DNA of 64,000 nt from a virus (lineage: Duplodnaviria > Caudoviricetes): the IMG/VR virus record IMGVR_UViG_3300037067_026422; one strand, given 5' to 3'. The first letter of the stretch is position 1. The number at the start of each line of letters is the position of its first letter. A program made the position numbers and the translations under genes. Positions 100 through 62,774 of the stretch are shown piece by piece. The notes under the pieces are model-generated. The model did no database searches and was not told where the DNA came from. It was given only the letters and a program-made list of their open reading frames with translations.

Positions 100-530
100 A
101 CAGCTATTCAATATCTATCCAACATCTATCCAACATCTATCCTGATAAGATCATTTAAAAGTATTACTATTGATCTTATTCCATAATATTGATGATCCCA
201 TAGTAGTACTGATCTTATTACTGCTATTGATATAATCACTAATTGATCCTGATAGAACTATTATTAAGATCAACAGTACTATCGATGGATCCTCTCATAT
301 TAGTATTGTATCCCTCTAATGAATCCTGTATTAGTCCTGATCTGTCATCCCTGATCTTAATATCTAATGGATCCTGTATTAGTCTCGTATCCTTTAATAG
401 ATCCTGTATTAGTATTAACCCTTGTTATTCCTGATATTAGTCCTGACAACCTTGTTAGCCCTGTCATTCCTGATATTAGTATATAATGGATCCTGTATTA
501 ACCCTTGTTATTCCTGATATTAGTATTGTT
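100..530. repeat. Low-complexity non-coding region with short direct repeats
   Basis: ATCTATCC three times at ~113-141; TAAT(G/A)(G/A)ATCCTGTATTA four times at ~318-500; ATTCCTGATATTAGT three times at ~427-524. No credible ORF. Confidence 0.7.
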
Positions 531-639
531 ATTGTTTTCAGATTTTGGAGATTTTAAAATCATGATATTTTCTGCGGACCCCAAACACGCCTGGGCTGTC
601 TTTTCCTATATATAGAGCTTTTTAGCTTTTTTACAAAAC

Positions 640-1037
640 TGCAACATAGAAAGCTTTTCTTGCATGGAATGAATGAGAGAAGAGAAAAACCTTTTCTTCC
701 TTCTTTATCTTGAATAGAGAAAAGCTTTCTGCAACATAGAATAAATTTTCTGCATGGAATGAATGAGAGAAGAGAAAACTTTCTTCCTTATTTATCTTGA
801 ATAAGAAAAAACTTTCTGCAACATAGAAAGCTTTTCTTGCATGGTATGAATAAGAGAAGAGAAAACTTTCTTTCTTATTTATCTTGAATAGGAAAAAACT
901 TTTTGCAACATAGAATAAATTTTCTGCATGGAATGAATGAGAGAAAGGAAAAGCTTTCTTCCTTATTTATCTTGAATAGGAAAAAACTTTCTGCAACATA
1001 GAATAAATTTTCTGCATGGAATGAATGAGAGAAAGGA
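640..1037 (+). repeat. Tandem array of five ~87-90 bp units, each containing TGCAACATAG-N11-TGCATGG
   Basis: Units start at 640, 730, 817, 904 and 992 (last one partial), directly upstream of the first gene. Confidence 0.95.
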
Positions 1038-60100: not shown

Positions 60101-60832
60101 ATGAGACTCTCCCGACTTAAAAAGATTAAGGTATCCAAAAAGATCTGGGATACACTTCCGGCTTTAATAAAACGAGGTAAGGTTGAATGGCAGTCTGATA
60201 CTCCTACCCGATTTTTGTGCAGCCCCGGATGTCGTAATTGTTGCGGTGGAACATTCTATACCCTGAGTGAGTTCAAGACTCTTCCTATGACTATCAAAGC
60301 GAAGCTTGTCCGTAGTGATGAAGTCTCTACTGTATTTCATATCGAAAAGATAAATGGGAAATGTGCCTTCTATATTCCCAATGAGGATCATACTGGTCTT
60401 ACACATGGCTGTTCGATTCATGGGCATGAACCTATGCGCTGTCGGATATTCCCGTATCTACCCATCCTCAGCCAAGACAGAATATTCATTACCTCTGAAA
60501 CATTCTGTAACGTCTATGACCTCGTAGGGGTAGAGAAATACCCCCATGACATCTGTTTTGGGTTGGGGAACGGGAAAAGAGGTCTTAAGACTATAGTGAT
60601 CAAGATGTGTCGGGAGTACCTGATGTCTTTGTATCAGGAGTATCCGGACCTTCTTAAAGAGATAATGTTTGAGGAACCTGTTAAACTCCTCCATAGAAAG
60701 TATATTAATATGCAGATCAACCGGAAGTATAAAACATATGAAGATGCTATCCCAGCACTACAGCATGCGGATAGCTTGAAATTTGGACGTCAGGTGCTTA
60801 ATCGCCTGGCAAAAATGCTTCAAATACAATAA
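60101..60832 (+). CDS. YkgJ-family cysteine-cluster protein
   Basis: CSPGCRNCC, GKCAFY, CSIH...P..CR.FP. Confidence 0.8.
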   Translation: MRLSRLKKIKVSKKIWDTLPALIKRGKVEWQSDTPTRFLCSPGCRNCCGGTFYTLSEFKTLPMTIKAKLVRSDEVSTVFHIEKINGKCAFYIPNEDHTGLTHGCSIHGHEPMRCRIFPYLPILSQDRIFITSETFCNVYDLVGVEKYPHDICFGLGNGKRGLKTIVIKMCREYLMSLYQEYPDLLKEIMFEEPVKLLHRKYINMQINRKYKTYEDAIPALQHADSLKFGRQVLNRLAKMLQIQ

Positions 60833-61084
60833 GACTGATAATGGCAAAGAAAAACTCATCCTCTATAAGCATAGCGATAACTTTTATATTGGATGATATA
60901 TCCTGAAGATATCAGGACTACTATATAATAACTGGAAGTTGTAAAAGAAAGATATGGCACATGACCTGTATCATCAAACCCGGAAAAATAACCAGCTACC
61001 GTGGAAGCCATAAAAATATAAAAGACATTGCTTAAACTATAGTACAGTTCTTTGTAAAATCTCATTCCTATAATTATATTATCA

Positions 61085-61180
61085 GTATTCACCGGCAGGT
61101 TTGTCGGGGAGAGCACGCTGAGGTGTCCCGTTAGGGAGCCTGTGATGCGTGAAATGTCTTGCGTGTGCTGGGAGCACTGA
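61085..61180 (+). ncRNA. Putative structured RNA with kink-turn and CRISPR anti-repeat
   Basis: Promoter TTGTAA-N17-TATATT at 61052-61080; hairpin CCGGCA/UGUCGG; box C/D-type k-turn at 61114-61151; 61157-61177 complementary to repeat nt 1-21. Confidence 0.6.
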
Positions 61181-61272
61181 TCATTGACAGTTTGGGGAGG
61201 TATCAATTTTTGGGTCATGATAATAACACATTACCTGGGGTAATTTTAAAAATTGCCCTACCAAATATTGGA

Positions 61273-61546
61273 GTGTTCCCTGCACACGCGGGGATGAACC
61301 GTTTACACATGAGATCCATACGACTAAGGTGCTGTGTTCCCTGCACACGCGGGGATGAACCGTATTATCCTGCGCATGTTCGCCCTCCATTCCGGTGTTC
61401 CCTGCACACGCGGGGATGAACCGATCTTACTTTAATCAAACAAAATAGGAGGATTGTGTTCCCTGCACACGCGGGGATGAACCGCCAACTTGAATCAGTT
61501 TTTATGTCTGTTCTTGGGTGTTCCCTGCACACGCGGGAATGAACTG
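61273..61546 (+). CRISPR. Type I-E mini CRISPR array, 5 repeats and 4 spacers, no cas genes in the window
   Basis: GTGTTCCCTGCACACGCGGGGATGAACCG at 61273, 61334, 61395 and 61456; degenerate terminal copy at 61518; spacers of 32, 32, 32 and 33 nt. Confidence 0.97.
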
Positions 61547-61673
61547 AAATTTAAACGGAATTTCTGACCTGGCTTGACAGGTATGATTTCATACAGGATC
61601 GGCTTTTAAACTTAATACTCCTTCTAAAATTTTTATTGTTTAACTGACTTTAAAAAAGTATATTGTTAAAGTC

Positions 61674-62057
61674 ATGAAAACACTACTCAACATAACATAT
61701 ACCGAAAGTGAGAGGAAACTCTTATACTCCTCTCTTGCCCCCGTAACGCAGCCCTGGCATCTGGCTACACTTAAAGAGGCGTGTGAACAACTTACTACAG
61801 GAGACAACTGTCCTGAACGAATCCTCATCTTCAGATCCCTGCCGGACTCAGTAGAAAAAGATCTTTTCAGTTATGAACCATATGGAGAAGCTAAAACCTT
61901 TGTAATATTTTTAAATAAGCAATATCTTGAATTTAACTTTTGGACCAGACACCTAAAAAATTTTCTGTTCCAGTCTAAACTATCAGAAATGCCTTTGTAT
62001 CTGAATATGTATTTTATGAATTATCTTGCAGCTTGGAGATTAAGAATAGCCAAGTAA
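61674..62057 (+). CDS. Tag-family protein
   Basis: Ends LSEMPLYLNMYFMNYLAAWRLRIAK; promoter at 61636-61664. Confidence 0.8.
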   Translation: MKTLLNITYTESERKLLYSSLAPVTQPWHLATLKEACEQLTTGDNCPERILIFRSLPDSVEKDLFSYEPYGEAKTFVIFLNKQYLEFNFWTRHLKNFLFQSKLSEMPLYLNMYFMNYLAAWRLRIAK

Positions 62058-62093: not shown

Positions 62094-62774
62094 ATGAAAG
62101 CAGCTCCAGTCAGTGAATCAATACCCGTCAAAACTTCATTTCTGTCACGAGCAGCTGTAGCAAGAAAAAGCTGGTACCTCGACAGGAAGAGTATTAGGCA
62201 ACCCTCACAGTATCACTGGACGCTAAAAGAACGTGCCATCCTATATGATTTAAGAGTTATACATAAGAAATCTATCCCTGAAATCCAGAGATATTTCCGA
62301 AAACTTAGTGGTACTCCTATTTATCTTGGTACGAACTACGATAATGATAAATATTCACGTACCCGACTTCATAATCAAATTCGCATCGTCCGTGGGACCA
62401 TGAATGGACTCTGTCATAAATGCCGTAAGAAGCTCTCAAAAGATGACCTCAAGCGTATCAACAGACGAGATAAAGAAGATCCCTCTATGGGGCTCTGCAG
62501 TGCTTGTGCTGAGGATGTTTCGGACTACAAGAGAACTGCCCGTAAAAAAGCCCTCAAGGAAGGCATCTGTCCTATCTGCTCCAAGAGGAAGATCCTGCCC
62601 GGATACACGACATGTATAAAGTGCCTGAGTGCTTCTCATCGTCAGAGATACATAGAGGGACTCTGTGGTAGATGCGGGGATAAACCTCTGGCAAAGAATA
62701 GCATTTCTTTATGCAGTGCTTGTCTCAAGGAGACACGGGAGTTAGCCAGAGAATATCGTAAAAAACAAAAGTAA
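62094..62774 (+). CDS. Basic protein with Myb/HTH-like segment and multiple CxxC zinc fingers
   Basis: WTLKERAILYDL...SIPEIQ; six CxxC motifs. Confidence 0.75.
   Translation: MKAAPVSESIPVKTSFLSRAAVARKSWYLDRKSIRQPSQYHWTLKERAILYDLRVIHKKSIPEIQRYFRKLSGTPIYLGTNYDNDKYSRTRLHNQIRIVRGTMNGLCHKCRKKLSKDDLKRINRRDKEDPSMGLCSACAEDVSDYKRTARKKALKEGICPICSKRKILPGYTTCIKCLSASHRQRYIEGLCGRCGDKPLAKNSISLCSACLKETRELAREYRKKQK

Follow-up and report, generated by a model that had tools for sequence, protein, structure and literature searches.

A probable cas5e remnant with an inverted partial repeat copy upstream of an orphan type I-E CRISPR array in a giant phage

The array and its surroundings

The DNA analysed here, referred to throughout as the window, is a 64-kb stretch (64,000 nt) of giant-phage DNA; its source contig has a length of at least 238,919 bp. 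Nearly all ORFs of the window are on the plus strand, the genetic code is the standard one, and a virion protein encoded here has distant relatives in Lak and other huge phages. Among the window ORFs, PADLOC matches were obtained for SspH (E 5e-58), mad8, mad1, a WGR protein, HerA and a pVip-like radical SAM protein, and Pfam matches for FtsK, ClpS, DNA ligase and prepilin-type proteins. The locus of interest is flanked by genes for a YkgJ-type Cys-cluster protein and a zinc-ribbon protein. Neither flanking protein has a match in IMG/VR, and no homologue of the YkgJ-like protein besides itself was detected among 5.8 billion proteins. The following features were mapped at the locus:

60841-60910, plus strand: broken 5' end of a homologue of p122, the gene before cas3 in the related locus L091, with a 1-nt frameshift and then an in-frame premature TGA
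61052-61080, plus strand: putative sigma-70-like promoter, TTGTAA-N17-TATATT (9/12 match), in AT-rich filler at the proposed deletion junction
61085-61180, plus strand: probable 3' remnant of cas5e, identical with a GC-rich island; 31 codons and a stop (VFTGRFV, a 24-residue tail ending in WEH, TGA)
61092-61107, plus strand: hairpin 1, CCGGCA-GGUU-UGUCGG, within the codons for TGRFVG of the Cas5e motif
61114-61151, plus strand: asymmetric-loop hairpin resembling a box C/D k-turn, CUGA opposite UGUGAUG, in the putative Cas5e tail codons
61157-61177, plus strand: anti-repeat, a partial copy of the repeat in inverted orientation (15/17 over nt 1-17) whose pairing extends through nt 21 with G.U pairs
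61181-61272, plus strand: AT-rich CRISPR leader, the terminal 15 nt of which, CTACCAAATATTGGA, resemble the leader-repeat junction of bacterial arrays with the identical repeat
61273-61546, plus strand: orphan type I-E array in which four 32-33-nt spacers separate four identical 29-nt repeats and a last, degenerate one

The first-pass annotation of this DNA had described a type I-E mini-array, and this assignment holds. The five repeats follow one another with a period of 61-62 nt, and the 29-nt repeat combines a Cas6e-type stem-loop (-12.2 kcal/mol) and an 8-nt 3' handle with spacers of about 32 nt. The identical 29-mer is also present in bacterial and metagenomic arrays, and the window array is classified as type I-E because, in one metagenome contig (L073), this repeat adjoins the I-E genes cse1-cse2-cas7e-cas5e-cas6e-cas2, with a cas2 of the I-E type. 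The similarity of the final 15 nt of the leader to the leader-repeat junction of the bacterial locus L074 was attained by 1 of 500 shuffles; when the island was compared with bacterial leaders, the similarity was confined to these last 15 nt of the leader. The spacers have no targets in the window or in the phage database, the exact repeat has no match in IMG/VR, and no DNA similarity to the island was detected in 50,697 phage records.

Two observations concern the repeat outside this array. In L072, a bacterial metagenome contig with the exact repeat of the phage, a gene for a 246-residue DnaQ-like protein with the DEDD exonuclease motif (206-946, minus strand) is located between cas2 and the leader. 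In the window itself, the sequence GCGGGGATAAACC at 62659-62687, inside the gene for the 226-residue zinc-ribbon protein, matches the 3' part of the repeat at 12 of 13 positions, with a handle of the E. coli type (ATAAACC); given an expectation of about 0.08 such matches per window, this one may be due to chance. Downstream of the array, at 61634-61685, a 9-bp perfect inverted repeat (TGACTTTAA / TTAAAGTCA) surrounds a TATATT element, its 3' arm overlapping the ATG (61674) of a gene for a 127-residue protein, and may form a hairpin involved in translational or promoter control.

Synteny and probable traces of a lost operon

The virion protein encoded 1.25 kb downstream has many relatives, the closest of which (91% identity) is encoded on Logan contig SRR33452760_50553, represented here by loci L080 and L091. 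The order and strand of the downstream genes are common to the window and these loci: p131 is similar to the 127-residue protein of the window (E 7.5e-10), p238 is 60% identical to the 226-residue protein, and p408 is 83% identical to its window counterpart. At the site of the island and the array, L091 contains p122, p70, cas3 (846 residues), cse1, cse2, cas6e, cas7e, cas5e, a 51-nt leader and a 7-repeat I-E array, with cas5e directly preceding the leader. In other relatives with a 72% identical virion protein (L087-L090), I-E arrays of at least 24 repeats occupy the same syntenic site, and in more distant relatives (virion protein at most 83% identical), unrelated genes are found upstream of the virion gene. 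In this giant-phage clade, a phage-borne type I-E cas3-Cascade module occupies a fixed site.

Several details of these relatives can be recorded separately. The complete interference module of L091 (1016-8430) has the unusual gene order cas3-cse1-cse2-cas6e-cas7e-cas5e, and no cas1 or cas2 was found on the 11.6 kb recovered. The seven repeats of its array degenerate progressively, and a promoter match, TTGACA-N16-TAGAGT, abuts repeat 1; transcription may begin within this first repeat. The arrays at L087:1-1500, L088:1-1120 and L090:1-340 run off the contig ends, and repeat variants build up toward the trailer.

No Cas protein, TnpB, Cas12 or Cas9 was detected among the 95 window ORFs, and a tblastn search of the window with the Cas proteins of L091 produced no match. 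What the window contains instead is a set of apparent stubs. Residues 2-21 of p122 align with the window at 50% identity (E 0.003, tblastn); when DNA and translation are compared side by side, MAEEKLVVYEHNGNYYIGW stands against GKEKLILYKHSDNFYIG, the latter ending at a stop. From the p122 stub to the cas5e remnant extends an AT-rich filler of roughly 175 nt (60911-61084), for which no convincing homology was detected in the region upstream of cas3 in L091. Beyond the filler, at 61085-61105, the sequence encodes VFTGRFV in a frame that stays open to the TGA at 61178-61180. This heptapeptide corresponds to the C-terminal motif of Cas5e, R-x-F-x-x-R-x-[VI]. A search pattern for the motif, built from five other Cas5e proteins (L091, L073, L072, L003 and L007), has a single match in the six frames of the 64 kb, at precisely this place; elsewhere, the motif reads RVFTHRFV (L091), RRFGARFV (L073), RLFAPRRI (L072) and RLFSPRRV (L003). 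Among 150 Cas5e homologues, 86 contain the motif within the last 60 residues, followed by tails of 1-35 residues, a range that includes the 24-residue tail of the window.

The Cas5e motif is accordingly found in frame at the syntenic position of cas5e. Cas5e tails are unconserved, and the alignment of the window tail with them is no better than that of shuffled versions. The 40-residue remnant peptide has no words in common with longer proteins and, being too short for either Pfam or NCBIfam, is not scored by them; the island as a whole displays no similarity to any of the compared loci. The composition of the island is distinctive, with a GC content of 58% from the junction to the stop codon, compared to 31% and 35% in the flanks; the cas5e gene of L073, the contig with the identical-repeat array, has 57% GC, matching the island. 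The first-pass annotation had taken the GC-rich island for an RNA gene. The island is indeed there, but both its edges and its GC content fit a cas5e remnant; because cas5e ancestry would account for the composition and for the exact boundaries, an RNA gene is not needed, and the high GC content would therefore not reflect selection for RNA structure. The annotation did not consider this alternative because the remnant and the lost operon are not visible from the window alone.

From the motif, its frame and its syntenic placement, we conclude that the island is most probably (with a probability of about 0.85) a remnant of cas5e left by the loss of a phage-borne type I-E operon. The ancestor of this phage would have held cas3-cse1-cse2-cas6e-cas7e-cas5e followed by the array at this site, as its closest available relative still does. 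Approximately 7.5-8 kb would have been lost, so that the start of the p122 homologue and the final 32 codons of cas5e are left, with the AT-rich filler between them; the native leader and the now orphan five-repeat array apparently also survived the loss of the cas genes.

Two further observations were made across this region. A 120-residue ORF on the minus strand (60856-61218), reported by the gene caller on the Logan contig, has no family match; it crosses the pseudogene stubs and the filler and is probably spurious. In run SRR18595300, the Logan contigs that encode the identical flanking proteins stop at about 61140, in the island, and resume at about 61458, in repeat 4. The break at about 61140 is away from any repeat and hints at population variation or a drop in coverage inside the island.

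The anti-repeat and predicted RNA structures

The segment 61157-61177 had been proposed to pair with repeat nt 1-21 through 16 Watson-Crick pairs, 4 G.U pairs and 1 mismatch, and this pairing was confirmed in full. The anti-repeat makes up the last seven codons of the remnant ORF, about 95-96 nt before repeat 1. Its core (61161-61177) is the sole match of at least 14/17 to the reverse complement of repeat nt 1-17 outside the array on both strands of the 64 kb, and its alignment score was reached by 0 of 5000 shuffles. The anti-repeat is clearly a real inverted partial copy of the repeat, beyond chance. The identity is uneven along this copy, at 15/17 over nt 1-17 and about 2/12 beyond.

Three other accounts of the segment were considered and rejected. 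Decay of a direct repeat, seen through its palindrome, is contradicted by the loop GTGT and the flank AGCAC, both in the reverse-complement form, and by a direct alignment of only 8/29. An integrase-anchoring leader motif is discounted by its absence from all other I-E leaders examined, and an inverted duplication that included the leader by flanks that do not match.

The distribution of the anti-repeat is narrow. The only cas-bearing homologue of the locus, L091, lacks the element: the region upstream of its array contains no true anti-repeat, the best candidate being equalled by 883 of 1000 shuffles, so that the conservation check proposed with the first-pass annotation turned out negative. 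Bacterial arrays whose repeat is identical or nearly so (sets of 4 and 7) have no anti-repeat, and neither do 59 loci with I-E repeats from IMG/VR, in which the few matches that reach significance fall in the palindromic stem and are degenerate direct repeats. In IMG/VR, the 17-mer of the anti-repeat has three matches, all of them chance occurrences inside coding sequence; the combined pattern of anti-repeat and repeat was not found in JGI metagenomes, and the search for a close cas-bearing sister with the same repeat type yielded none. With L091 and about 70 other I-E arrays lacking it, the anti-repeat is not generally associated with I-E loci.

At the RNA level, the predicted duplex of anti-repeat and repeat (-36.7 kcal/mol) is far more stable than the hairpin of the repeat itself (-12.2 kcal/mol), so that a plus-strand segment is predicted to pair with the first repeat more stably than the repeat folds natively. 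Counting G.U pairs, the complementarity stops at the Cas6e cleavage site (nt 21), and the four transitions that distinguish the anti-repeat from a perfect complement all keep wobble pairing, on the plus strand only, with an estimated chance probability of about 0.1. The leader together with repeat 1 folds with z = -5.0 on the plus strand and -2.7 on the minus strand. For the segment 61088-61301, the anti-repeat helix is formed in both the MFE and the centroid structure, and 0 of 200 shuffles are as stable. In an equilibrium model of the full transcript, the anti-repeat pairs with one repeat at a probability of 0.97, and this is the degenerate repeat 5, not the first one. The island alone folds no better than shuffled sequences (z = -1.17).

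Separate promotion of the island, as originally suggested, is not supported. The site TTGTAA-N17-TATATT is present and is the only plus-strand promoter-like match in 60700-61800, but the region contains four promoter-like matches where 3.3 are expected, and window-wide 11 of 27 such matches are in intergenic DNA, a mild enrichment only. No terminator-like site was found between the island and the array; therefore, any transcript of the island would be the 5' leader of the pre-crRNA rather than a separate RNA.

The two upstream hairpins that had been noted in the island are both there. Hairpin 1 falls in conserved Cas5e codons, and the hairpin at 61114-61151, in the unconserved Cas5e tail like the anti-repeat, conforms to the sequence and secondary-structure consensus of a box C/D-type k-turn, with sheared G.A/A.G pairs, U.U at 3b.3n, five Watson-Crick pairs, a 3-nt bulge and flanking helices. 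How rare such a hairpin is depends on the descriptor: a loose one detects 13 sites in the window vs 8.9 in shuffles, a chance-level rate that weakens the original claim, and a strict one, tuned after the fact, detects 1 site vs 0.033 expected per window. The k-turn pattern has no match in IMG/VR. A search of Rfam at permissive thresholds returned only chance-level snoRNA and c4 matches, with snoR117 falling on the k-turn hairpin at E 3.6; ARAGORN detected no tRNA in the region. Among the 25 of 28 weak families listed for 61 small window ORFs, there is no Ribosomal_L7Ae-type domain that would point to an L7Ae/YbxF-type protein.

Readings of the anti-repeat and comparison with known systems

Whether the anti-repeat has a function of its own is a separate matter from the origin of the island. 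We favour the reading in which it is an unselected by-product without a selected function, and put the odds of this at about even. The anti-repeat would likely have entered the variable 3' end of cas5e via an older rearrangement of the array. If transcribed, from the junction promoter or by read-through, the region would be the 5' leader of the pre-crRNA, in which the anti-repeat would trap one of the five repeats in a helix of 21-22 bp and hide its Cas6e hairpin. Several observations fit this account poorly: a 15/17 inverted copy beyond chance; the drop from 15/17 to about 2/12 identity, unlike the uniform decay of a whole inverted repeat; the end of pairing at nt 21 and the retention of wobble pairs on the plus strand; the fold z of -5.0 compared to -2.7 on the minus strand; and the rarity of the strict k-turn (0.033 expected). 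The uneven identity, the end of pairing, the wobble pairs and the fold z also favour a role at the RNA level. Such a role could be that of a selected cis-acting leader-repeat helix, which would keep one repeat (the first, in co-transcriptional folding) out of the reach of Cas6e. The helix would either stem from the cas-bearing ancestor or have been co-opted once the deletion had occurred, and would tune the use of Cas6e and Cascade by the phage array. Its predicted stability (-36.7 vs -12.2 kcal/mol; z = -5.0, 0 of 200 shuffles as stable, one repeat paired at 0.97), the pairing that spans exactly nt 1-21, the end of the Cas6e product, with G.U pairs that work on the plus strand only, and the absence of a terminator before the array all point in this direction, and other CRISPR types provide established examples of the principle (PMC13187072, PMC12080349). 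Nevertheless, the helix is missing from L091 and about 70 other I-E arrays, with neither conservation nor covariation to support it; its equilibrium partner is the degenerate last repeat rather than the first; and the array may be inert after the loss of the cas genes. Type I-E crRNA requires the cutting of both flanking repeats; blocking a type I-E repeat costs a guide, beyond removing extraneous RNA. We consider this reading tentative and distinctly less probable than an unselected by-product. The related, more specific proposition that the anti-repeat was selected and kept on purpose when the cas genes were lost, be it as a I-E leader-repeat helix or as an antisense RNA against the 3' hairpin of the crRNA, appears slightly more doubtful still.

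The first-pass annotation had offered three functions for the island, among which only a leader RNA affecting pre-crRNA processing may still apply. A separately transcribed RNA of about 95 nt, with a k-turn as protein handle and a 3' anti-repeat, acting as a tracr-like partner or as an antisense anti-CRISPR against host pre-crRNA, is unlikely. It is suggested by the promoter-like site ending 7 nt before the island, by the k-turn consensus, rare under the strict descriptor, by an anti-repeat at 61157-61177 such as tracrRNAs possess, and by the order of elements. Type V single guides have the order scaffold, anti-repeat, repeat, spacer, which is also the order seen here. Phage type V systems on 29-nt repeats exist (bioRxiv 10.64898/2026.04.20.719267). 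The Cas12r system of phages, which has 29-bp repeats, does without a tracrRNA. Against a trans-acting RNA stand the lack of a terminator after the anti-repeat, the lack of an Rfam family, and a 64-kb window in which no type II or V effector, TnpB/Cas12 or L7Ae-type protein was detected; the absence of detected cas, TnpB and Cas12 genes among the 95 ORFs, together with the unrelated nature of the two flanking proteins, speaks against the tracr-like version. Moreover, the first third of the supposed RNA consists of conserved Cas5e codons, the island extends from a deletion junction to a stop codon, and five repeats in the same transcript would titrate a single anti-repeat. The remaining proposal, a degenerate minus-strand repeat-spacer-repeat unit (61177 down to 61088, with a 61-nt period) that is processed by Cas6e and loads Cascade, is very improbable and already largely refuted. 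Its basis is the recurrence of GTGCTC at 61 nt and a minus-strand promoter-like site at 61249-61220, and such phage RNAs are known (PMC10651486; bioRxiv 10.1101/2024.10.29.618823). The two copies of this hexamer, GAGCAC at 61111 and 61172 on the plus strand, are indeed 61 nt apart, as had been pointed out, but the agreement with the array period is due to chance: the downstream 'repeat' (61088-61116) was matched by 1883 of 5000 shuffles and overlaps the Cas5e motif. The upstream copy corresponds to repeat nt 1-17 only and has lost both the hairpin's 3' arm and the 8-nt handle AUGAACCG; folding is less favourable on the minus than on the plus strand; and a search of the window for even a partial target of the 32-nt 'spacer' gave none.

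An intact-looking orphan array from which the cas genes have been shed would be a snapshot of how phage orphan arrays arise, and an apparent tracr-like or anti-CRISPR RNA island that is more probably the stub of a lost cas5e has value as a correction. If the anti-repeat had a function, type I systems would join those with leader-repeat control of crRNA maturation, and a helix gating Cas6e would be the first in a class 1 system and in a phage. The antisense variant, if true, would have as its target the 21-nt 3' hairpin common to all I-E crRNAs of that repeat type.

The closest parallel to the locus as a whole is found in the CRISPR loci of huge phages. Al-Shayeb and colleagues reportedly described, in 2020, huge phages with CRISPR-Cas loci and orphan arrays, and type I systems without cas1 and cas2. 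In L091, cas3 and Cascade are accompanied by an adjacent array, and the window has an array without cas genes at the same site. Unlike these loci, it has pseudogene stubs on both sides of an apparent loss of about 7.5-8 kb, and an inverted partial repeat inside the cas5e stub.

Individual elements of the island resemble parts of other systems. As in tracrRNA-type systems, a 21-nt anti-repeat adjoins the array and is preceded by hairpins; in contrast to them, neither an effector gene in the window nor a terminator before the array was found, and the repeat belongs to the genuine Cas6e-type repeats of I-E systems. The k-turn-like hairpin shares with box C/D k-turns the CUGA opposite UGAUG and the tandem G.A pairs, but is found in putative coding sequence and in a window without a listed L7Ae/YbxF-type protein. 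Phage solitary repeat units (Racr) and the crRNA-like RNAs Cracr, CreA and CreR (PMC10651486; bioRxiv 10.1101/2024.10.29.618823; PMC10120712) are, like the window element, repeat-derived sequences, here phage-encoded, outside an array proper; in Cracr and CreA, a short pseudo-spacer matches a cas or toxin promoter. These RNAs mimic the repeat on the sense strand, with Cas6 hairpin and 5' handle intact, whereas the element in the window is antisense and its minus-strand copy retains neither.

The most direct comparison is with leader-repeat hairpins, which block the formation of extraneous crRNAs in type VI-B (PMC13187072) and type II-C (PMC12080349) systems and, as cited in these two papers, have a type II-A counterpart (Liao et al. 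2022). Common to these systems and the window is a segment upstream of the array, on the same strand and complementary to a repeat, with a predicted ability to out-compete the structure required by the processing factor. The known cases involve crRNAs in which the guide precedes the repeat, and their hairpins are conserved; the array in the window is of type I-E, and its anti-repeat, about 96 nt upstream in a gene remnant, is absent from all comparators, namely L091, the bacterial same-repeat arrays and the 59 viral I-E loci.
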